DNA of 64,000 nt, from positions 1,962 to 65,961 of IMG/VR virus record IMGVR_UViG_2773858005_000001; one strand, 5' to 3'. Under the pieces are notes generated by a model, which ran no database searches, had not been told where the DNA came from, and saw nothing but the letters and a program-made list of their open reading frames with translations. The stretch's first letter is position 1. The number at the start of each line of letters is the position of its first letter. Source of the stretch: a virus. A program made the position numbers and the translations under genes. Positions 5,448-17,409 of the stretch are shown in pieces.

Positions 5448-7472
5448 CTAATCCCGTGTAGGTCTATAATCTAACAACCACGTGGCTGTTGGTACATGCT
5501 CGTTATATGCTGTCGCAACTGTCCCGATTTCCAGTTTCATTCGAATAGTCAGCGCTTTTTTTGCATATACTTTGCAGTAATAAGCGTTAGCAGGTACAAC
5601 AATAGTTGCTGATTTAATCGTATTTGCATACTCTGTATAACTGATAAACGTTTTACTTTTTGTGTAAAAGAAAATCCGTCGCGCGCTGTCGCTATCTGTA
5701 TTCAATATGCTGAAAGTTAAGTTTTGCGCTGGTACACAAGCTATCCACGTGGATGACCTGTCTATAGTATCATTGCTACTACTCATGAGCTTGCCAGTTG
5801 ATGCCTGTAGGTAACCAACATCAAAAGTTGATTCGTTGACGAGGTTATCACTATCTATTCTTAAATTGCTAGGTTTAGGAAATAAATTGTACTCAATCGG
5901 TACGCCTCCTGTAAATTTAGGGAATCGAGAGCCAATATAAAAGTTGTCCATAAACGGCTCACCGTTTTTATAAAAACAACCGTCCTCTGAATCAATTCTT
6001 AGTTCTTCGCCAGCACGTGCAATAATTTCTTGTTTTGATGTTATGCCATTGCCACCGTTTAAAATGTTCCAAACTTTAACATCCGTTATTGCTAATGTGT
6101 TAACAGTATATTTTGTCGGAGGATTAGCTCTATCTTCCGCTATGTCTGCTTTTGCTAGGAAAAATGCAATCCCTGCCAGTTTTTTATTGTAAGTATTTTT
6201 AGTATCTGTAAAGGTTGTGGTGATTGGCTTGCTCCAAGCGTTACCAGCATTGTTAGCCTTTAATTTCATGACGCTGAATGTATACTTATTTCCAATTTTC
6301 AAAACATCAAGATAGCCGTAAAAATCAGTAAACGTCGATGTTGCTGTGGACGATGGAACACTGATTGTTTTATAGACAACTTCTGTTTTTTTCTTTTTAT
6401 TGACAGTTACCGTTTTTGTGCCATTTTTAGTTTTAACTTTAATCGTTGTTACTTTTCCTTTTTTAACAGTACCTGGACTGTTGTAAACGTATTTAAAGTT
6501 ACTTCCACTTTCCACACTGAAGACGATATACGGGTCTTTACCGTCGGATTTATCATTCAGTGCAACTTTTCCGATTCTTGCACCATTCGCATCAAGCAAA
6601 TAAAATTCTGCTGCGCCTCGTGAACGTGCATAGTGTTGTAAGTTACACAATCGTACTCTTACACGATAATCTTCACATTCTTGTCCTAAATATTGCTGAA
6701 AAGCTGGTCCATGATAGCCCGCCATATTTTCACCGAAACTTTTAACTTGGATGCCATCGTTATATATTTTTAAGCTGCCCGATGCAGTTCCATCTAGCTT
6801 AAAAGTAACGTCAGCGTTTTCAAGAGTTGTCCAGGGAACGGTCGTTGAGCATTTATCATCTAAAATTAACGGCTCGTTATTGACTGGCGTTTCACCTTGC
6901 ATAAAATCAACATCATTGCCGATATACGCCCATTCGCCGTTATCATCCACAATCGCTAACTTTGTGATGTCTGTATCCGGTATACAAGTAAAAACAGGCT
7001 TAACATCCGAATACCCGTCAGCTGTAATAGTAACAGGATTTTCTCTGATTTCTTGAGTTATCATTTTGCCATACTGATGCGGATCAGATGCCTCAAATGT
7101 GATTGTAAAAGAAAAATCACACGTTGCTTTAGCAAGTCTTGTTGACTTACTTATATCCACAAGAGAAACATACATCTCCCAATCCATCGATGTTGTAAAT
7201 TTTAACGACACTGCATTTGTTGTAAATGGTCTTAAGACATTCGCAATATAAGCCTCTTTTTCTGCTCGTTCACTTTCATTTTGTGCTAAACAGACACATT
7301 CCAATATAATATTTTTAGAGCCGATTGACGTCCCTTGTGATATAGCACCAGTCATACCAGGCACATCTTGCGAAGATGCAGAAAGAGAACCCATGAAAGA
7401 GTTCTCAACATCCTCTAAAATTATTCCTAAATCATCGTAACTATCGAGCGTATCTAAAATAAATCGCTTCAT
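5448..7472 (-). CDS. Distal tail protein (evolved Dit) with insertions
   Basis: Directly after TMP; FSFTITFEASDPHQYG Dit motif; 674 aa with a Lys-rich hairpin and a CBM-like C-terminal segment. Confidence 0.75.
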   Translation of the reverse strand: MKRFILDTLDSYDDLGIILEDVENSFMGSLSASSQDVPGMTGAISQGTSIGSKNIILECVCLAQNESERAEKEAYIANVLRPFTTNAVSLKFTTSMDWEMYVSLVDISKSTRLAKATCDFSFTITFEASDPHQYGKMITQEIRENPVTITADGYSDVKPVFTCIPDTDITKLAIVDDNGEWAYIGNDVDFMQGETPVNNEPLILDDKCSTTVPWTTLENADVTFKLDGTASGSLKIYNDGIQVKSFGENMAGYHGPAFQQYLGQECEDYRVRVRLCNLQHYARSRGAAEFYLLDANGARIGKVALNDKSDGKDPYIVFSVESGSNFKYVYNSPGTVKKGKVTTIKVKTKNGTKTVTVNKKKKTEVVYKTISVPSSTATSTFTDFYGYLDVLKIGNKYTFSVMKLKANNAGNAWSKPITTTFTDTKNTYNKKLAGIAFFLAKADIAEDRANPPTKYTVNTLAITDVKVWNILNGGNGITSKQEIIARAGEELRIDSEDGCFYKNGEPFMDNFYIGSRFPKFTGGVPIEYNLFPKPSNLRIDSDNLVNESTFDVGYLQASTGKLMSSSNDTIDRSSTWIACVPAQNLTFSILNTDSDSARRIFFYTKSKTFISYTEYANTIKSATIVVPANAYYCKVYAKKALTIRMKLEIGTVATAYNEHVPTATWLLDYRPTRD

Positions 7473-10400
7473 TAATTCGTCACTCCTTTAAAAAAGTTGC
7501 GTGTTGTATCTTTTGATTGTTGTTGTTTTGTGATTGCAGGCTCTAATTTTTTGCTATCAAGATAGGTGTTATTATCTTTATTAACAAGTTTCATCAACAA
7601 TGCATTTTGCTGCGTTAATAATGCGACTAACTCGCTGTTGTCGTTTTTCTGATTATTGACAACAACAGTACCACCATCTTCATCACCTAGAACATTTTTA
7701 ACTTGTTTTAAAAGTTGCATTGCTCTGCTGCGTTTCGATGGGTGTAAAGGTATAATTGCTTCGGCTCGATTACCTTCAGCAATTTGTGCTACTTGGTGTT
7801 GACTAACAATGCCACCATTTGCGTACCCATGACCTTTACCAATTACACCTAACATACCTGCTGCGCCGTATCTTGACTTAGCATAATTAATACCTGCTAA
7901 AAGACTATGCAGACCATTAAGGCGATTGTTATATCCTGGAAACTTGTACGCTTCAAATGTTGTGCCAATTACCTGAACTAAACCTTTAGCTAAGTCACCA
8001 GTTTTATTATTAATATCACCAATGTTCCCTTGAACAGCTCGTGGATTTCCGCCCGATTCAGACTGAATTTGACGTAACCAGGCATTCACATAGGCAGGAG
8101 TAACTGGCAAGTGATTCATTGCTAACGCACGTTTTACGGTACCTGCCCATCTTGTAACACCTGCTCCGCTCGGCTCTTCTCCACCCATGCCATCAAACAG
8201 TTTTTTCAACCAGTTGCTTTGATTCTCAGCGTGCTTTTCCGCACCATTACCAATGTTTACTCCCGAATCGCCCTTAAAAGACGTCTGAGAAAACGCACTC
8301 GAGGTTAATTTCTTCCACAATTCGGCGGGTTTGTCGAAAAAGCCCATAATGTCTTCAATTTTGCTGCTAAACCAATCTTTGACTGATGCACCTGTACCTT
8401 TTGCATACATAGGAGCGATGCCGAAGTTTTTAAACTTCTTAAATATATCTTCAGTCTGTTCACCACTAAAAACTTGCGACCCTTTCGGTAAATGGGTGAG
8501 TGTGGGAGTATCTGGCGAAAGTGCCATATTACCGTTAGCATATTGAATTAACTCTTGTTTACCACCATCACCAACCCAAGCTGTTTCTGCAGCTGCTAAA
8601 GCACCGTTTGTACCTGTAGCCCACGCATTGAATTTTAGTAACGGTAACTTGCCATTTCCACCTAAAGAGCTTGTTAAATCGTTAGCTCCTCCAACAATTC
8701 CATTAAAATTGCCAATAACACCTTTGCCTATTTCAGCAGATGCATCTAAAGGTTTATTTTTCTTGTTAAGAAGTCCTTTGCCTAATTCAGTAGAACCTGC
8801 TTGACCTTTAGCATAAGCCCATGGGTCAAATGTTAAGTTCTTTTGTATTCCTGTTTTTATGTTTAATGCTTTTGAATCTGTATATGCTTTTTTGCTTTGC
8901 ATACCATTAGCTAAACTATTAATTGTTTGCTTACCTTGGTAGTCCAAGTTTATATTAGCTTTATTGCGCATCAAACCTTGATACCCTTTCATAAAGGTAT
9001 CGACATTAATTTTACCGCTAGTGTAAGCTTTGACTAGGGAATCCATCGTAAACTTACCTTGACTACCTAAATCTACCTTTGCACCCTTTTTAATAACGCC
9101 AGAGATATTATCCATAGCTTCTTTTGCACCAGGTAACCCAAGTTGAATACCGACTTTCAGTGTAGCCATTGAATCCGCTGATAACTTGCTAATATCTTTA
9201 CTAAAGATACTATCTAAAGTAGTTTTATATTTTTCACTTAAAACACCTAAGTCAGTTATACCCACACTCATGCCAGATTTAAAAGTTGCTAAATCCGCTT
9301 TACTCCATGAAGATAAATCTTTCTTGAATATATTTTTAAGTTGTCCATCGTATTTGGCTTTAAGTTCCGCTTCGTCAATCTGACCAGATTTCAAACCTGC
9401 ATTTAGAGTAGCTACTTCTTGTTTCCCTAAATTTGTTAAATCTTTAGGGAATAGATCCATAACTTTTCCATTAAACGTACCTTTAATTTGGTCTAGTGTT
9501 AAAGCTCCTGCAAACAATCCTTCTCTTAAAGTAGCAACATTATTTTTACCAACTTCTGACAAATCTTTCCCTGCCATCGATTCAAGCTTTTGGCCAAAGA
9601 AAATTTTTGCCATTGCAGCACCTTCATCAGTTCCACTTTGGAAACTATCAAAAAATTCTTTGGCTGTTTTCTTACCGTAACGACCTAAATCAATTTTATT
9701 AGTTGTATCAGTTAAATCTAAACCCCACTTTTCAGCAGCTTTTTTAATTTCACCATCAGATTTAAGACCATCAAGATATGCATCTTTAGCAGCTATAGCT
9801 TGCTTATTAATCATCTGGCCAGTTGCAGTCATTTCGGATTCTAGTTTATCCCTGTCTTCTTTAGCATAACGAATAGCTTCTTCCACAGATGTGCCTATTT
9901 GCATGTAGTAATTACGTTGGTTAGATTCATATATTTCAAGATTTTCTTTTTGTTTATCAGTTAAATCCTTAGAAGATTTCATAACACCCTCGTTATGTTT
10001 CTTCGTAGCAGCTAACCAATCTTCTTGAGTTTTGTATATCTTCCCAGTTTGTTCATCCCAATACTGCACTTGGCCATCGCCATATTTTTGTGTAGCATCA
10101 TCTAAAGTTTGTAATGTTTTCAAGTTAATGTTTTTCACGCTTTTCAATTTAGATGCCATATTAGATTGAGCTGTAATGTATTTTGCATTGGCCTTTTCTG
10201 TGCGTGATAATTTATCACCTTCTAAAGCAAACATAGCAGCTGCATATTCTTGCTGAGTAATGCGGTCCTCGTCTAGTTGTTTTTGCAAACTGTCACTAGA
10301 TTTTTTGTAAGATTTATCGCTTTCTTTCAACGTTTTATCTTTAGCTTTTTTCAACTTGTTCATTTCTTCTATATAAGTCTTATTATCTAAATCACCTTTG

Positions 10401-13036
10401 CGCTTAGCCCATGAGTTCCCTAGATTTTCAAGATCATTATAATTTTTAGCGAACACGCTTGTCTTGTTTTCAATAAAAGATGTGTAGGTATCAAATTCTC
10501 GTTGTTGAGTAATACTCAACTTCTGTAAATTACCACCTACTTTATCTGTAAGCTCTTTAATTTTTCTTTGAGCTTCTTCTACTTGTTTAATCTCATCATC
10601 ATAGCCACTATTAGAATTACGTTTTGCACCCGAAACGAATTTATCACTTTGAACACCACGACCTGCTCCGATTGAATCAAATACGGTGTTTGTTTCAGTT
10701 TTAAGGCTTTCTAATTGTGTTTTTACTTCACTAGCCATGCCTTGATAACTCTCAACAATCTTAGATGATATTGAAGCACCCTTTTCAGCAGATGCTGTTT
10801 CTAATGCTATGAGTTGAGTATTTGCTTCATCACGCATCGTAACAAAACTATTACCCGCTTTAGCTGTGGCATCCGATACATCCGAACCGAATAAACGTAC
10901 ATTTTCAGCAGTTTTTTCCTGTTCAGCTTTTTGTTTACTTAAAGCTTTAGCTCCCGCAATTGCCGCGACACTCAAACCAACAACTGCTGCAGTTGCTGCA
11001 ATAGTTGGCAAACCCATAGATGCAATAACTGGCAATAATGATTTACTGGATTTAGCCATACCGCCAATTCCTATATCAGCTGCTTTAGCTTCTTTAGATG
11101 CTCCTGCCAAGGATGGAGTTAGAAAACCTAACCCTTTATTTAATTTTGCTAACCCACCCACTGCAACTGAAGATATTTTTTGAACTCCAGATATTCCTAA
11201 TGCCAGTGGTCCAATAGCGGCTGCAGTACCTGCAACTACCATTGTAGTTTTCTTAGCGCCATCTGACATGTTATCAATACTATTAATAAAGTTAGTCACT
11301 TTTTCAGTCACATCAGAAATAACGGGAGCAAATGTTTTACCCATCGATATACCGAACGCCACAAAGTTGTTTTTCATTACTTTAATTTTCGATGCTGTTG
11401 TTTTATATCGTTCGTTTGCTTCGTTAGTTAACGCTGAATTTTCATCCCATGCTTTTGTGGAAATATCTAACGCTTTACCTAGCAACTTGCTATTACCTGC
11501 TAAACGTAGCATTGTATCAGATTCACGAATACCTTGAATACCAACATCTTTTAAGACATCATTAAGGTTTTCTCCATTTGAGGATGCTTTACCTAATCCC
11601 TCAACGTAGAGTTGCAATGCTTTTGCAGGGTCTTCTGAAAACAACTTAGCAAACTCATCACTTGTAACACCTGCGACACTTGCAAATGAATCTAATTTAC
11701 GTTCACTCTTATCTAATTCTTGTGTGAATTTTTGAAGACCTTTACCATCGAGATTCTTTTCAGCTTCAGCAATCTTTTCAGCGTATCCACTATGAGATGC
11801 AACAACGTTCTGCATTTTTTTCAATGCCATACTCATTGCTGTACCGCCTGCTTCGGCTTCGATACCCACCGAACTCATAGCTGTTGCGAGTCCAACAACA
11901 TCAGCTTCACTCATACCGATTTGATTACCAACACCTGCTAGGCGCATTGCCATAGATGATATTTCAGATTCTGTAGTTGCAAAGTTATTACCTAAATCAA
12001 CAATCGAACTACCTAATCTATCAAACTTTGTTTGACTCATTTGCATGATATTTGCAAAACGTGCAAATTCAGTAGCAGCTTGTTCTTGTGTTAAGTTTGT
12101 GGATTCGCCTAAGTCAATAATTGTTCTGCTGAATTTCGCAATGTTTTCTCGTTCGATGCCTAACTGTCCTGCAGATTCTGCCACAGCGGCAATATCATTT
12201 GCTGATGCAGGTAATGCTTTTGACATATCAATAATAGTTTTACTGATTTCAGCGTATTGTTCTTCTGTCGCATCCACAGTTTTTCGAACACCTGCAAAAG
12301 CAGATTCATAATCGATAACTGCTTTAGTAGCACCTGCGAACCCTGCGACAATTGGTGTTGTGACACCTAATGTCATTTTACGACCAACAGCGGCAGATTT
12401 TTCACTCGCTGTTTCTAACTTTTTACTGTACGCTTCAAGCTCTTTGGAACGTTTTGTAAATGGTGAGTTTTCCACAGCTTGCGCTTTATTAAACTTATCC
12501 TGTGCCTTAGTTGCTCCATCAATACGTTTTGATAACGTGTTGAATGATTCAACCTCTTTATTGACTGCCTTTTCTGCATTATTTAATGCTTTGGGCATGT
12601 CTTGCAATTCTTTATTTAACTTAGTATATTCTTTCTGATTAGCTGAAACTTCTTTTTTAGCAGCTGCTAATTCAGTTTTATTAGCTGTTCCAGATTTCTT
12701 TAGATCATCATAACGTTTCTTAGATTCGGTGAGGACTCTATTAGATTTTTCAATCTCACCGTTTAACGATTTATTGCGTTCTTGCAACGTTTTATAGTCA
12801 CCTTGCGTTTGTTTAACCATCTTAGACTGGACTTCCATTTTCTTAGTCAATCCAGTTATAACAGCTTCATATTTCTTTGTTGATTGTTCACCTTTATCAA
12901 ACGCTGACAGGTTTGCTTTCATTTCTTGATTAACGTTACCTAATGTACGTTTAAGACCTGCCATGCCCTCGTCAACACCTTTTGTGTCCAATCCTAAGGC
13001 TATTTCCATACCTTTAATACGTTCAGTGTTACTCAT
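7472..13036 (-). CDS. Tape measure protein with C-terminal lytic transglycosylase (SLT-like) domain
   Basis: 1854 aa, YESAFAGVRKTVD TMP core, helical repeats, IQSESGGNPRAV..GLVQV..AGINYAKSRYG. Confidence 0.95.
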   Translation of the reverse strand: MSNTERIKGMEIALGLDTKGVDEGMAGLKRTLGNVNQEMKANLSAFDKGEQSTKKYEAVITGLTKKMEVQSKMVKQTQGDYKTLQERNKSLNGEIEKSNRVLTESKKRYDDLKKSGTANKTELAAAKKEVSANQKEYTKLNKELQDMPKALNNAEKAVNKEVESFNTLSKRIDGATKAQDKFNKAQAVENSPFTKRSKELEAYSKKLETASEKSAAVGRKMTLGVTTPIVAGFAGATKAVIDYESAFAGVRKTVDATEEQYAEISKTIIDMSKALPASANDIAAVAESAGQLGIERENIAKFSRTIIDLGESTNLTQEQAATEFARFANIMQMSQTKFDRLGSSIVDLGNNFATTESEISSMAMRLAGVGNQIGMSEADVVGLATAMSSVGIEAEAGGTAMSMALKKMQNVVASHSGYAEKIAEAEKNLDGKGLQKFTQELDKSERKLDSFASVAGVTSDEFAKLFSEDPAKALQLYVEGLGKASSNGENLNDVLKDVGIQGIRESDTMLRLAGNSKLLGKALDISTKAWDENSALTNEANERYKTTASKIKVMKNNFVAFGISMGKTFAPVISDVTEKVTNFINSIDNMSDGAKKTTMVVAGTAAAIGPLALGISGVQKISSVAVGGLAKLNKGLGFLTPSLAGASKEAKAADIGIGGMAKSSKSLLPVIASMGLPTIAATAAVVGLSVAAIAGAKALSKQKAEQEKTAENVRLFGSDVSDATAKAGNSFVTMRDEANTQLIALETASAEKGASISSKIVESYQGMASEVKTQLESLKTETNTVFDSIGAGRGVQSDKFVSGAKRNSNSGYDDEIKQVEEAQRKIKELTDKVGGNLQKLSITQQREFDTYTSFIENKTSVFAKNYNDLENLGNSWAKRKGDLDNKTYIEEMNKLKKAKDKTLKESDKSYKKSSDSLQKQLDEDRITQQEYAAAMFALEGDKLSRTEKANAKYITAQSNMASKLKSVKNINLKTLQTLDDATQKYGDGQVQYWDEQTGKIYKTQEDWLAATKKHNEGVMKSSKDLTDKQKENLEIYESNQRNYYMQIGTSVEEAIRYAKEDRDKLESEMTATGQMINKQAIAAKDAYLDGLKSDGEIKKAAEKWGLDLTDTTNKIDLGRYGKKTAKEFFDSFQSGTDEGAAMAKIFFGQKLESMAGKDLSEVGKNNVATLREGLFAGALTLDQIKGTFNGKVMDLFPKDLTNLGKQEVATLNAGLKSGQIDEAELKAKYDGQLKNIFKKDLSSWSKADLATFKSGMSVGITDLGVLSEKYKTTLDSIFSKDISKLSADSMATLKVGIQLGLPGAKEAMDNISGVIKKGAKVDLGSQGKFTMDSLVKAYTSGKINVDTFMKGYQGLMRNKANINLDYQGKQTINSLANGMQSKKAYTDSKALNIKTGIQKNLTFDPWAYAKGQAGSTELGKGLLNKKNKPLDASAEIGKGVIGNFNGIVGGANDLTSSLGGNGKLPLLKFNAWATGTNGALAAAETAWVGDGGKQELIQYANGNMALSPDTPTLTHLPKGSQVFSGEQTEDIFKKFKNFGIAPMYAKGTGASVKDWFSSKIEDIMGFFDKPAELWKKLTSSAFSQTSFKGDSGVNIGNGAEKHAENQSNWLKKLFDGMGGEEPSGAGVTRWAGTVKRALAMNHLPVTPAYVNAWLRQIQSESGGNPRAVQGNIGDINNKTGDLAKGLVQVIGTTFEAYKFPGYNNRLNGLHSLLAGINYAKSRYGAAGMLGVIGKGHGYANGGIVSQHQVAQIAEGNRAEAIIPLHPSKRSRAMQLLKQVKNVLGDEDGGTVVVNNQKNDNSELVALLTQQNALLMKLVNKDNNTYLDSKKLEPAITKQQQSKDTTRNFFKGVTN

Positions 13037-13050
13037 TAAATACCTCCTAA

Positions 13051-13254
13051 CTAACCGAGACGGTCAAGAAATTCATGCGCTGGTATAGCTTTTTGTTTTT
13101 TAGCTTTTTTGGTTTCTTTCTCTAAGACCAATGTCAGCAATCTTTCGTATGGCTGACTATCAACTTCGGTAACTGTCCATCCGTAACTCGTCATGCAATA
13201 TCTACGAATGTCGTTCAAAGTTTCCACTTGTTCTTCGAGACTTATTTCTTCCCC
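13051..13254 (-). CDS. Tail assembly chaperone extension (gpT-like), probably made by -1 frameshift
   Basis: -1 frame reads EISLEEQVETLNDIRRYCMTSYGWTVTEVDSQPYERLLTLVLEKETKKAKKQKAIPAHEFLDRLG* and overlaps the end of the upstream chaperone at GGGGAAG. Confidence 0.7.
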   Translation of the reverse strand, partial: GEEISLEEQVETLNDIRRYCMTSYGWTVTEVDSQPYERLLTLVLEKETKKAKKQKAIPAHEFLDRLG

Positions 13255-13595
13255 TGGTCTTCTTCCTCTTCTTCGTCTGGTTCAAAGGATTCGGGAGATA
13301 CAGCTTTCATGACATCTGTCAGTTGTTGTTCCCAGTTATCACGAGTTAATCCGTTCTTAATATCTGTGGGAGTGAGTTCCTCTGATGCGAACAACTCGGC
13401 AACATATTCAAGTTGCAAGTTGATTCCACCGAAAATACTCGGCTCTTCTTGTTCGGTTAATTTGCGAATTTTTGACTGTAAAATAAAAAAGTTCTCAATG
13501 TCCGCTAATGTTGCAACGCCACGAGAATAAGTTTTTTCTTTGCCTGTGTTGGCATCTGTAAGAGTTAATGTAATTTTTTCTGTCATGTTATCCAT
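13242..13595 (-). CDS. Tail assembly chaperone (gpG-like)
   Basis: Position between tail tube genes and TMP; acidic C-terminus. Confidence 0.75.
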   Translation of the reverse strand: MDNMTEKITLTLTDANTGKEKTYSRGVATLADIENFFILQSKIRKLTEQEEPSIFGGINLQLEYVAELFASEELTPTDIKNGLTRDNWEQQLTDVMKAVSPESFEPDEEEEEDQGKK

Positions 13596-13656: not shown

Positions 13657-14085
13657 CTATTCAGCTGTCTTAATAGTTACTGCACAAGTTGCCGTCTTAG
13701 TGCCAGCTTTAGCTGTAATTGTTGCTGTCCCAACTGCAATAGCTTTTACAGTACCGTCAGCTCCTACAGTTGCTATTTTCGCATCACTGGTTGTCCACAC
13801 AACCGTTTTATCAGTTGCATTGGCAGGGGCTACTGTAGCTGTTAATTTTTCAGTTTCTCCAACATTTTTAGCTAATGTCGTTTTATTTAAAGTGACACCT
13901 GTTACCACGATAGGCAACGTTTCAAATGCAGGCACATCGACCTTTTCACTTTCTAACTCGCCAACTTTACGCGATAACGTAAAATCACCTTTTGCATATT
14001 TAGTTGCAGGCGTTAGCGCAGAAAGAGAAACCTCAATCTCTCCTTCTGCAACCTTTTCACCTGTTTTATTGTAAGCAATTAACAT
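13657..14085 (-). CDS. Ig-like display protein: partial Fn3-like N-terminus plus Big_2 domain
   Basis: LSALTPATKY..ESEKVDVPAFET then VTGVTLNKTTL..LTATVAPANATDKTVVWTTSDAKIATV. Confidence 0.85.
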   Translation of the reverse strand: MLIAYNKTGEKVAEGEIEVSLSALTPATKYAKGDFTLSRKVGELESEKVDVPAFETLPIVVTGVTLNKTTLAKNVGETEKLTATVAPANATDKTVVWTTSDAKIATVGADGTVKAIAVGTATITAKAGTKTATCAVTIKTAE

Positions 14086-14100
14086 GTTTACACCTCATTC

Positions 14101-14157
14101 CTAATCTGCTGTTATTTTAGCTGTAGTTGTTCCCGCAACTACTTTTAGCCCTTTGGG
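14101..14157 (-). other. Candidate -1 programmed frameshift of the major tail protein giving extension PKGLKVVAGTTTAKITAD*
   Basis: X-XXY-YYZ heptamer C CCA AAG (14157-14151) just before the stop; -1 frame open to TAG at 14101. Confidence 0.75.
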
Positions 14158-14726
14158 CTTGTAACTGCTGTTTTAAATAAAGCTGTTTCAAATGCTGCTA
14201 ACGCTTTAGCGCCTTTACCTTTACCAAATACGCGCGCTTCGCCATCGATTTGCTTAGTCACAAATTTACCTTTAAGTGCATCTGCTTCTAATTCTTTAGG
14301 GTCTTTTTCTTTTGTATTAGCTTTAACACTTTCAGTTGAGAATTTACCTTTAGGCAATCCGAAATACACATCGTTTCCTTGAGGGTCTTGAGATTGTGCA
14401 AGCAATGCAACATATGGTGCAATTGTGTTTTCGCCCGACCAAGAAATTCCATCTTCGCCTTCTACTTGACCTAACACCGCGTTTAATACTTCGTCTGGTA
14501 AGTCTAAAACTGACATATTAACATCAAGCTCCGTTGCACCTTGTGATAAAACGTAGTAAGCAACATCTGACCCGTATTGAGTAATAGGTTCAATATCAAA
14601 ACCATTGATTTCAATATCTACTGTTGCACCTTTGTTAGTTTCACCGTTGATTGTAAATGTTTTTGTTACTTTATCATCTTCACCTAAAATACCGATTTTC
14701 ACTTGTTTAAATCCGACTAATGACAT
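14145..14726 (-). CDS. Major tail protein (phi13-like family)
   Basis: MSLVGFKQVKIG..APYVALLAQSQD..YFGLPKGKFS; position after tail completion genes. Confidence 0.9.
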   Translation of the reverse strand: MSLVGFKQVKIGILGEDDKVTKTFTINGETNKGATVDIEINGFDIEPITQYGSDVAYYVLSQGATELDVNMSVLDLPDEVLNAVLGQVEGEDGISWSGENTIAPYVALLAQSQDPQGNDVYFGLPKGKFSTESVKANTKEKDPKELEADALKGKFVTKQIDGEARVFGKGKGAKALAAFETALFKTAVTSPKG

Positions 14727-14762
14727 AATTAATTCACTCCTATTTTCTGTTTTTTTGTATTT

Positions 14763-14786
14763 AAAAAGACACTCTATTGAGTGTCT
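14763..14786 (-). terminator. Terminator-like hairpin immediately upstream of the major tail gene
   Basis: AGACACTC-aata-GAGTGTCT then TTTT. Confidence 0.6.
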
Positions 14787-15166
14787 AGTTGGTAACGGAA
14801 TGGAATGCCTATATATCTCCGAGCATCCACATAGCGTTTTGTTCCATTAAAATATTCATCAAAACCATTCGTTTGTTGATATAAATTAATGTTTTCTAAT
14901 TCTTTTCGTATTTCATTTTGCACAATTTTTACAACCTTACGATCATGCGATTGCACATCAATCTGATATAAATATTCTTCTGAATGGTTCGTATTGCCCC
15001 CATAATTAACTGGAACAGGAACGTCCATAGGAATAATTAACATGAATGGTTTGTCAGTTGCAGCAGTTTCTGGAAGTTCGTAGTAAAAAATACGACTTCC
15101 ACACTGTGCTTTTATGACTTCATTAGTTTTTAATTTTTCATAGATTACACTTAGCATGTCTATCAT
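14774..15166 (-). CDS. Tail completion/terminator protein
   Basis: Position; EEYLYQIDVQS..YVDARRY pattern. Confidence 0.7.
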   Translation of the reverse strand: MIDMLSVIYEKLKTNEVIKAQCGSRIFYYELPETAATDKPFMLIIPMDVPVPVNYGGNTNHSEEYLYQIDVQSHDRKVVKIVQNEIRKELENINLYQQTNGFDEYFNGTKRYVDARRYIGIPFRYQLDTQ

Positions 15167-15564
15167 AATTTTTTACTCAACTCCTCTTTCACTACTTTGA
15201 AATAAACACTTTCACTACTTCTCAATGACCTAGCAATAGCACCCACGCCTCGTGGGAGTATCTTTTTACCATTCTTCGTGTAACCAAACTCGTTCAAATG
15301 AATGAGCCTGTAGCGGTCCTTAGAACCTCTCCAATTGACAACAATTGTACGAACACCGTTTTTGTAAATGGGTTCATTGACAGTGATTTCATCTTTCGAT
15401 GCACCAGTATCTTTAAAAGTGTCGAAATTCTTTTCTAATTCACTAACGAAAGGTTTTGAAGCTTGCGTTAATGCATTATCAACAATCACTAGCATTTCAT
15501 CACGACCAAACATTTTAGAAAGTTGGTCCTCAACTTCTTTAATGCCTTTGATGTCCACACTCAT
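15163..15564 (-). CDS. HK97 gp10-like tail component
   Basis: MSVDIKGIKEV..DTGAS..RLIHLNEFG. Confidence 0.75.
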   Translation of the reverse strand: MSVDIKGIKEVEDQLSKMFGRDEMLVIVDNALTQASKPFVSELEKNFDTFKDTGASKDEITVNEPIYKNGVRTIVVNWRGSKDRYRLIHLNEFGYTKNGKKILPRGVGAIARSLRSSESVYFKVVKEELSKKL

Positions 15565-15923
15565 GATTTCAACCCTAAAACTACGGTCACAAAATCATTG
15601 TTTGTGACATCGTGTCTTACATCAATTACATTGAAACGTTTACCTGTGTAGCGATAATCAAATATCTCCACAAAATGCTTGTTGGTGACTGTGTATTCAC
15701 CCTTTGTATCACGTATAGTAATCGTCACAGCTTCTTTAGTCTCTACAGTGGATAACAACTCTAAATCTTTCATAGAGCTGTTATAAACCTCTGCAAAGCA
15801 TGTAAATAAAGAAGCTTTTTCATAATCACCTGGTTCAGGACCAGAAGTACCATACTCATAAAACTCAACTGCCGTTCTTAACTTGCCAGAATGTACTTTC
15901 GGTGGATTATACTTTTGTTTCAT
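15561..15923 (-). CDS. Head closure/head-tail adaptor
   Basis: GKLRTAVEF..AVTITIRD..KRFNVIDV; position. Confidence 0.75.
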   Translation of the reverse strand: MKQKYNPPKVHSGKLRTAVEFYEYGTSGPEPGDYEKASLFTCFAEVYNSSMKDLELLSTVETKEAVTITIRDTKGEYTVTNKHFVEIFDYRYTGKRFNVIDVRHDVTNNDFVTVVLGLKS

Positions 15924-16194
15924 CTGCAAAACCTCCCAAAACTGACTCCAATCCTACAGACGTGAGTTGAGAGCGAAAGTTTTCATCGAAAAATTCAACC
16001 GAATCATTATAAACATAACGAGAACGTTCAAGCACCAACTCAATGGCTCGATTGTTGTCTTCTAACGTAGCTAAACTACATTTATGTTTAATATCATCCA
16101 CAGATGCTTTGATGATCATCAATAAATTAGCATCTTCAGCACTGTGAGAAATATGCATTCTATTTTTAAACTCAATTAACAATTCTTGCTCCAT
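15907..16194 (-). CDS. Head-tail connector (gp6-like)
   Basis: EFKNRMHISHSAEDANL..LVLERSRYVYND. Confidence 0.8.
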   Translation of the reverse strand: MEQELLIEFKNRMHISHSAEDANLLMIIKASVDDIKHKCSLATLEDNNRAIELVLERSRYVYNDSVEFFDENFRSQLTSVGLESVLGGFADETKV

Positions 16195-16205
16195 GAAATC
16201 CCTCC

Positions 16206-16272
16206 TTAATCAGCAGTTAAGACTGCACCATCAGTGTCAGCCTTTACTTTGATATTTAGAGGTGGCTTAGGG
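16206..16272 (-). other. Candidate +1 programmed frameshift of the major capsid protein giving extension KPPLNIKVKADTDGAVLTAD*
   Basis: Capsid ends CCC TAA; +1 frame open for 20 codons to TAA at 16206. Confidence 0.75.
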
Positions 16273-17409
16273 TTTCTCAACTTCTGTTTCGATTTTCAAG
16301 TCCCAAATTGCCGCAACTTTATCATCTTTAGCTTTACCATATGCAAATTGTTTTGCAGTGTATAAGTCTAAATCTTCTAAAGCGAGTGTTTGGTCATATT
16401 TTTGGATATTTACACCACCTGCTACATAAGCATCGTAACGTTCTGCAACGTATGAGATAGCTTTTTTAGCTGGAACAAATACTGATTCCAAGATTGTTAA
16501 GTTGAAAGGCATAGCAGTCACATAAACGCCGTTTGCGTTAAGGTGAGTGTATTGAGTGCGCACATCCCAAGCATCGACTGGATTAACTAACAAAGTAACT
16601 TTGCCTGCTGAGTTAAAAGCTTTACCATTTTCTTTGATAGAGTGGTATTTAAATACTTCAACTAATTCTTTAACAGTCGATTTAGGGTCTGAAAATGTCA
16701 ACGTACCTGTCGCTTTTTTCTCTGGGTGCTTGCCATCTACAATTGCAACATCTTTCTTCACTTCACGAGTTAAACCGATAGGTTGTTCTTTACCGTCACC
16801 TGTAATAAACCCAATTTCTAACGCAACTGAAAACGCTTCAGTGATTTGAGTAACAACATAACGTTTAATCCAAGCAGGACCAAAGTCGTTTAAATCTTTT
16901 GGTAACACTACAAATGCTGTTAATTTGTTTTGAATTGCTTCTTCATCGCTAAATGCAGCATCTAATTGCCCTTTAATTTCACCAAAGATTTTACCCCAAA
17001 CCGCAACGCCGCTTGTTTCTGATTTCAAGAATTTCAAACGTAAACCAGTTGTTTTCATTCCAATTGAAGCTAAGAATGGATGTTCAGTAGTTAGATCTTC
17101 GAAAATTTCATCAATGATAGTTTGTGGTAAAAGTTTTTCTTCTTTATAACCAACCTCTGTATTAATATCGTTGAAGAATTTAGTTACTTCTGCTGTCATT
17201 GTTGGGTTGCCACGAGTAGCATCGAATAGTTTTTCAGCTTCGTTACGTGATTCTTTACGACTTTCTGCGAGTAAATCCTCAGCCATCGCATTCATCATGT
17301 TCATGTATGCTTCGTCCTGCTCGTCTTGTGGTGCTTTTTTTGTAACTAAGTCAGCGAAAATCGCTTTTTGTTCGTTGTATTTTTGTAAACCTTTAAGTTT
17401 CATTGTCAT
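16267..17409 (-). CDS. Major capsid protein, HK97 fold
   Basis: LLPQTIIDEIFEDL..ITGDGKEQPIGL; follows portal and protease. Confidence 0.95.
   Translation of the reverse strand: MTMKLKGLQKYNEQKAIFADLVTKKAPQDEQDEAYMNMMNAMAEDLLAESRKESRNEAEKLFDATRGNPTMTAEVTKFFNDINTEVGYKEEKLLPQTIIDEIFEDLTTEHPFLASIGMKTTGLRLKFLKSETSGVAVWGKIFGEIKGQLDAAFSDEEAIQNKLTAFVVLPKDLNDFGPAWIKRYVVTQITEAFSVALEIGFITGDGKEQPIGLTREVKKDVAIVDGKHPEKKATGTLTFSDPKSTVKELVEVFKYHSIKENGKAFNSAGKVTLLVNPVDAWDVRTQYTHLNANGVYVTAMPFNLTILESVFVPAKKAISYVAERYDAYVAGGVNIQKYDQTLALEDLDLYTAKQFAYGKAKDDKVAAIWDLKIETEVEKP

Follow-up and report, generated by a model that had tools for sequence, protein, structure and literature searches.

What do two short, similar open frames that run past the stop codons of a capsid gene and a tail gene encode, and does the Ig-like gene beside the tail gene belong with them? 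This question is raised by a locus on the minus strand of the 64,000-nucleotide stretch analyzed here (IMG/VR virus record IMGVR_UViG_2773858005_000001, positions 1,962 to 65,961; hereafter the window, in whose coordinates all positions are given). The genes concerned encode the major capsid protein (MCP), the major tail tube protein (MTP), and a 142-amino-acid open reading frame (ORF) at 13657 to 14085. We consider it likely that together they form a split fibronectin type III (FN3) docking system. Frameshifting would add FN3 strands A and B to MCP and MTP as C-terminal tags, and the ORF product, a catcher consisting of strands C to G joined to a Big_2 domain, would complete the fold in trans.

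Matching tags past the capsid and tail stops

The MCP gene ends GAG AAA CCC TAA and the MTP gene ends AGC CCA AAG GGC TAA. Both 3' ends thus carry a recoding signal (AAA_CCC_TAA in MCP and C_CCA_AAG in MTP), each with a predicted RNA structure downstream. The +1 frame of MCP, from the AAG at 16268, encodes KPPLNIKVKADTDGAVLTAD and then a stop; the -1 frame of MTP, entered at C_CCA_AAG, encodes PKGLKVVAGTTTAKITAD and then a stop. The features of the two gene ends are as follows.

16267 to 17409, minus strand: MCP gene, 380 amino acids, HK97-type (Pfam Phage_capsid, E 6.3e-11; 74.5% DNA identity to cps of Listeria phage B025)
16267 to 16275, minus strand: +1 slip site AAA_CCC_TAA, read from the sequence (rare CCC overlapping CCU, stop codon in the A site)
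16209 to 16268, minus strand: capsid tag, +1 frame, 20 codons, putative FN3 strands A and B, with its stop TAA at 16206 to 16208; kept in loci L003 to L007 with one G/S change
16201 to 16262, minus strand: predicted RNA hairpin that begins 4 nucleotides past the MCP stop and base pairs with the Shine-Dalgarno sequence (GGAGG) of the next gene (-24.8 kcal/mol, z -2.4; matched by 3 of 200 shuffles)
14145 to 14726, minus strand: MTP gene, 193 amino acids (Pfam Phage_TTP_1, E 4.3e-12)
14151 to 14157, minus strand: -1 slippery heptamer C_CCA_AAG, two codons ahead of the MTP stop; kept in L003 to L007
14104 to 14157, minus strand: tail tag, -1 frame, 18 codons, putative FN3 strands A and B, with its stop TAG at 14101 to 14103; aligned to complete domains by BLASTP of the read-through sequence
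14123 to 14142, minus strand: predicted 7-bp stem-loop 8 nucleotides 3' of the heptamer, candidate -1 stimulator (whole 91-nucleotide fold, z -2.3)

The capsid signal has counterparts in recoded phage genes: CCCUAA is described as the experimentally proven +1 site of SPP1 gene 17.1 (PMC6316719), and AAA_CCC_stop is given as the tsh site in Listeria phages (PMC5009743). Among the 57 long ORFs of the window, MCP alone has CCC directly before its stop; of the proline codons, CCC is the least used there (9.8%). An X_XXY_YYZ heptamer adjoining the stop was found in MTP and two others of the 57. The capsid tag ends AVLTAD, and its TAA directly precedes the GGAGGG ribosome-binding site of the next gene; the tail tag ends AKITAD, followed by TAG.

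An earlier note on this DNA had claimed that the two genes reach matching 18-residue tails by shifts in opposite directions. We confirmed this likeness, with 9 of 18 residues identical and two further I/L pairs. When the MTP tag was scanned over 15 kb in three forward frames, its top match was the MCP tag (z 3.8; equaled by 1 of 200 shuffled tags). The MCP tag sits directly past the MCP stop and has a stop at its own end.

The Ig-like gene opens with the rest of an FN3 domain

The gene that follows MTP comprises the following parts.

14091 to 14096, minus strand: Shine-Dalgarno sequence GAGGTG of the catcher gene, read from the sequence, 5 nucleotides ahead of the ATG
13912 to 14085, minus strand: catcher, residues 1 to 58 of the 142-amino-acid ORF, FN3 strands C to G without A and B (homologue profile, fold match, hhalign)
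13681 to 13905, minus strand: Big_2 Ig-like domain, residues 61 to 135 (Pfam PF02368, E 3.8e-16, score 59.2 bits, gathering threshold 22.8); 13657 is the last position of the ORF

This arrangement agrees with the description in the earlier note: the ORF starts with the residues quoted there, and profile, fold, and Pfam evidence places FN3 strands C to G in residues 1 to 58 with Big_2 behind them. A profile built from catcher homologues picks out fibronectin FN3 domains among PDB sequences (E 1.5e-6; C'-E-F region) and retrieves 325 representative proteins. In 164 of the 211 domain matches across all proteins collected, the domain begins within the first 12 residues, that is, without strands A and B. 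The 47 internal copies carry canonical, tag-like FN3 A and B strands just upstream, with a B-C loop of 6 to 8 residues at the split point, which bears out the assignment of the two tails to strands A and B.

BLASTP of a read-through sequence (tail tag, X, ORF) gave alignments to complete domains in P0264 and P0212 that start at the first residue of the tag and have their gap in the B-C loop, exactly at the split. Because the alignment starts at the first tag residue and its gap falls there, the tag and the N-terminal domain of the ORF appear to be one FN3 domain cut in the B-C loop. These comparisons support the correspondence of the tags to strands A and B and of the ORF start to strands C to G. 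A phmmer search of the read-through against PDB sequences returned no match.

AlphaFold modeling of the read-through with a 141-row alignment gave a predicted local distance difference test (pLDDT) score of 84.7, with the C-to-G part at 90 to 95; a single-sequence model of the ORF scored 46. The whole read-through model aligns to FN3 domains over residues 1 to 81 (Z 6 to 6.7). Its residues 20 to 79 align to residues 230 to 286 of 5E7T chain B, which is BppA of the Tuc2009 baseplate (Z 6.5, root mean square deviation 1.7 Å, 27% identity). Additionally, hhalign of the catcher family against BppA domain 2 gave a probability of 95.5% (E 1.4e-8, 56 columns).

A solved precedent in the Tuc2009 baseplate

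The five-strand, FN3/titin-like domain 2 of BppA in the Tuc2009 baseplate is completed in trans by a 25-residue β-hairpin at the C terminus of BppU (5E7T; Legrand et al. 2016, PMC4742702). That domain, the nearest solved structure to the window catcher, is homologous to it, and the complex is a solved precedent for the docking idea that the earlier note did not cite. The donor hairpin is the extreme C terminus of a virion protein, as in the window tags, and resembles FN3 strands A and B. As read in the Tuc2009 genome, the BppU tail opens with KPPTN, where the window capsid tag has KPPLN; aligned by eye, since they are too short for BLASTP scoring, the two share 6 of 20 residues in the pattern KPP.N..V...T. 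The systems differ in that the Tuc2009 hairpin is in frame on every BppU without recoding, that there is one donor rather than two, and that the remnant lies at the C terminus of BppA and the site is the baseplate rather than head plus tail tube. Furthermore, PMC4742702 does not frame the pairing as a general tagging system.

Tags and catcher recur together

The closest relatives of the window are Brochothrix thermosphacta prophages and phage BtpYZU02. Among loci gathered from IMG/VR, GTDB genomes, and GenBank phages, the same layout was found in about 20, from Brochothrix, Enterococcus, Staphylococcus, Lactobacillus, and Bacillaceae phages. Searching approximately 10 kb in three frames with the catcher-adjacent tag returned the second tag as best match in 21 of 30 related loci (z 3.2 to 11.6), and in those loci the second tag sits just past the stop of the other major structural gene and ends in a stop. 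If tags and catcher belong together, as the earlier note had it, they should be kept together in homologous phages. Both tags do co-occur and co-vary with the catcher in the roughly 20 loci and, conversely, MCP homologues without a catcher (B025, L037 to L040, and L042 to L044) have no FN3 tag.

The slip sites, like the shift directions, vary by lineage (CCC_TAA, C_CCA_AAG, G_GGA_AAG, C_CCA_AAA, A_AAA_TAR, and ACA_CCC_TCG), with G_GGA_AAG used in both genes of BtpYZU02. The tag ends at the same structural point in every lineage, of which at least six have different slip sites. The catcher has its own Shine-Dalgarno sequence and start codon at every related locus, and in 13 of 24 loci it lies in another frame than the tag. 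The catcher gene comes after MCP, not MTP, in Bacillaceae prophages. The tags of one genome resemble each other at 10.1 of 18 positions, versus 5.0 of 18 when one gene's tags are compared across lineages. Where the tags vary, third codon positions are favored (33/26/57), which indicates coding constraint.

The enterococcal phage phiEf11 has the same system in ORF10, ORF15, and ORF16: the -1 tag of its MCP matches the zero-frame C terminus of its MTP, and ORF16 is a catcher joined to Big_2. It differs from the window in that the tail tag needs no frameshift. Because the tail tag lies in the zero frame of MTP in phiEf11, and likewise in L013, it is certainly translated in these two. Stevens et al. 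(2016, PMC5221750) saw two MCP bands in phiEf11 virions, separated by approximately 3 kDa, and proposed a -1 extension of 21 residues; they did not link the extension to FN3 or to ORF16.

Two types of Brochothrix prophage have Big_2 domains that are about 88% identical at the protein level and catchers that are about 35% identical, and their tags differ accordingly, those of the Brochothrix-B type being of the VNSTTTGANVELS kind. This pair looks like a natural module swap, because nearly identical Big_2 domains are joined to different catchers with matching changes in the tags. By tblastn, the catcher was found in 231 phage records, among them 145 from Staphylococcus (including myoviruses of about 140 kb), 75 from Enterococcus, and 5 from Lactobacillus.

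Separately, the Ig-like gene at 13657 to 14085 has a mosaic junction at its domain boundary when compared with P0011 and L001, and its Big_2 part has 85.5% DNA identity to BtpYZU02. The catcher is also joined to other payloads (P0243, 518 amino acids; P0123/P0124; and matches in the Staphylococcus myoviruses of about 140 kb). Other payload types include a lipase/acylhydrolase-like domain placed ahead of the catcher domain and a truncated FN3 followed by several complete FN3 repeats.

Proposed mechanism of docking

We propose that some ribosomes change frame at the gene ends, by +1 at AAA_CCC_UAA in MCP and by -1 at C_CCA_AAG in MTP, and that some MCP and MTP subunits would thereby gain a C-terminal β-hairpin of 18 to 20 residues, equivalent to FN3 strands A and B. 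The gene after MTP, with its own Shine-Dalgarno sequence and ATG, encodes strands C to G in residues 1 to 58 fused to Big_2. By homology to the solved complex, the hairpin would complete this five-strand remnant in trans, as BppU does for BppA domain 2, and completion would anchor Big_2 noncovalently on head and tail. Frameshift efficiency would then fix the number of subunits open to decoration, and the Big_2 payload may adhere weakly to polymers of the cell surface, as is commonly suggested for Ig-like domains in phages.

The layout is real and probably functional, and the presence of a matching tag in both genes suggests that one protein probably clips onto both head and tail. Docking in this phage is supported by homology to the Tuc2009 pair.

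Several observations weigh against the docking proposal. Pfam gives no FN3 match for the catcher (residues 1 to 59), either alone or as a read-through with the tag. In the AlphaFold read-through model the tag has a pLDDT of 58 to 62, with only strand A called. The five-strand part, by the same modeling, could be stable without a tag, because it is predicted confidently by itself. The contrast between within-genome and between-genome tag likeness is weak for the window taken alone, where the capsid tag is equally close to its own tail tag (9 of 18) and to the capsid tag of L021 (9 of 18). Because the loci share ancestry, fewer independent events lie behind them than their counts suggest. Mass spectrometry of phiEf11 virions did not detect the extension peptide (PMC5221750). 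Finally, the evidence for frameshifting and for binding in this phage is indirect.

Alternative explanations

Some of these points would suit a different use of the tags. Frameshifting may make them for subunit contacts or assembly, with the Ig-like protein attaching elsewhere or acting as a soluble or assembly factor; a tag modeled at low confidence and a catcher predicted confidently without it are both compatible with such a role. However, the tags are homologous to the A and B strands of exactly the family whose C-to-G part opens the neighboring protein, tags and catcher co-occur and co-vary, and the homologous Tuc2009 pair is docked in the crystal. We therefore regard this alternative as unlikely. 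Chance likeness between two short open alternative frames might be invoked for peptides this short and this rich in T, A, and V, and 1 in 200 shuffled tags does as well somewhere in 15 kb. It is untenable, with a probability close to nil, because both tags lie right after stops, recoding signals stand at both sites, and the pattern recurs in many divergent loci.

The tags could also be evolutionary debris, in which an FN3-Big_2 frameshift extension in the style of SPP1 or A118 was broken by stops, the capsid tail is a relic, and the short tails are untranslated or functionless. The window itself lends this some color, in that its tail tag and ORF lie in one frame, parted only by TAG GAA TGA GGT GTA AAC, and whole-domain frameshift extensions occur in relatives (the MTP of L037, the MCP of L019, and tsh of A118). 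A broken extension would have to account, however, for a break point that is constant across at least six lineages with different slip sites, for the third-position bias that marks coding constraint on the tags, for a Shine-Dalgarno sequence and start codon at each catcher, and for the truncated position at which most family members begin. The capsid tag, moreover, has no downstream remnant of strands C to G. We judge decay of this kind distinctly improbable. Still less credible, and in our estimate very improbable, is a product in cis, in which ribosomes that have shifted -1 read through TAG and TGA to give an MTP-FN3-Big_2 fusion with no trans docking on the tail. The shared frame of tag and ORF in the window and its close relatives would permit it, but two stops would have to be suppressed, and the capsid tag, 2 kb from the catcher, would be left unexplained. 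TAG/TGA read-through was rejected as a general mechanism, because each catcher has its own Shine-Dalgarno sequence and start and is out of the tag's frame in 13 of 24 loci.

We return to trans docking of the catcher on frameshifted tags as the preferred reading, and we are inclined to extend it, with some reserve, to a general mode of modular virion decoration. The FN3 domain would be split between genes, with the A-B hairpin placed on capsid and tail tube either substoichiometrically by frameshifting or in frame. A free C-to-G protein with an exchangeable payload (Big_2, several Ig domains, a T-rich linker, or a lipase-like domain) would snap onto each tagged subunit. Such a system would extend across hundreds of Bacillota phages, with tag and catcher types co-evolving.

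Relation to other systems

Completion of a fold by a strand from another polypeptide is familiar from chaperone-usher pili, in which donor-strand complementation completes an incomplete Ig-like fold. Pili offer an analogy only: there the missing piece is a single C-terminal G strand, which an N-terminal extension supplies, and the system belongs to an unrelated fold family and involves no recoding.

Frameshift-appended domains are known in SPP1, in which, as summarized in PMC6316719 and PMC7666168 (citing Auzat et al. 2008), a +1 shift at CCCUAA in gp17.1 adds an FN3 domain to about one-quarter of the tail-tube subunits (gp17.1*). The same summaries describe that domain as dispensable. The window capsid gene has the identical CCC_UAA signal. 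SPP1 adds a whole 87-residue FN3 in cis, whereas the window would add strands A and B, with the remainder as a separate gene product. Unlike extensions of the SPP1, A2, and A118 type, the alternative frames of the window encode no complete domain but 18 to 20 codons, amounting to two strands, and then a stop.

In Listeria phages A118, A500, and PSA and in Lactobacillus phage A2, both the capsid and tail genes are reported in PMC5009743 to be recoded at their 3' ends (citing Zimmer 2003, Dorscht 2009, Garcia 2004, and Rodriguez 2005), with +1 signals at (AAA)CCC_stop or ACA_CCC_UCC and -1 signals at heptamers. We considered the proven Listeria frameshifts as split tags and rejected them. On the capsid, both PSA and A118 have HeH-like extensions; on the tail, A118 has a whole Big_2 and PSA an acidic peptide. 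PSA and A118 thus differ from the window in having no FN3 half-domain and encoding no catcher.

A second recurrent capsid extension was seen. In L037, L038, L050 (PSA cps), and L049 (A118 cps), the frame entered by shifting at the 3' end of MCP encodes a HeH/SAP-like peptide, about 45 residues long and of the ...ELKEEL... type, which the A118 annotation lists as a "HeH/LEM domain-containing protein" in its own right. Whole-domain solutions were also observed. At L037:9326-9600, MTP shifts -1 into a complete Big_2, and at L019:2585-2720, MCP shifts -1 at A_AAA_AAA into a Big_2-like domain; the MTP of L019 keeps a short FN3 tag.

The arrangement in the window is a combination of two known kinds, namely, frameshift-appended Ig/FN3 domains and the trans-completed domain of BppU and BppA. 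No description of a frameshifted tag paired with a free catcher was found in the full-text literature, a scope that leaves subscription journals largely outside. If the proposal is true, it would account for a common but unremarked pattern in Gram-positive phages, in which intergenic gaps of approximately 60 to 70 nucleotides follow the capsid and tail genes and an orphan Ig-like gene is present, often misannotated as a major tail protein. Recoding would take on a new role, in that it would control how much docking tag is made instead of appending a complete domain, and fold complementation would become a general principle of virion attachment beyond the single case of the Tuc2009 baseplate. 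The proposal would also provide naturally matched, orthogonal tag/catcher pairs for protein display on phage heads and tails, although nothing seen here speaks for or against a covalent or otherwise engineerable pair, and tagged MCP and MTP isoforms, currently absent from records, would need to be annotated.

Gene order and other observations in the window

The genes discussed above belong to a siphophage morphogenesis module on the minus strand of the window, which derives from a provirus record. In minus-strand order, the module consists of terminase, portal, ClpP protease, MCP, four head-tail connector genes, MTP, the ORF at 13657 to 14085, tail chaperones, and tape measure.

A tail assembly chaperone pair lies at 13051 to 13595 on the minus strand. 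Its 117-amino-acid ORF ends CAG GGG AAG AAA TAA, and the -1 frame is open into a 58-amino-acid ORF at 13051 to 13227, like the usual G/GT frameshift; a perfect X_XXY_YYZ heptamer was not seen in the pair. The tape measure protein (7472 to 13036, minus strand) has 1854 amino acids, and its C-terminal part contains a candidate lytic transglycosylase-like motif (...SESGGNP...), judged by eye. Between 36000 and 50000, several 2-kb bins have a G+C content of 0.25 to 0.32, versus about 0.36 elsewhere, and the GC skew of the window switches sign at 36 to 38 kb.

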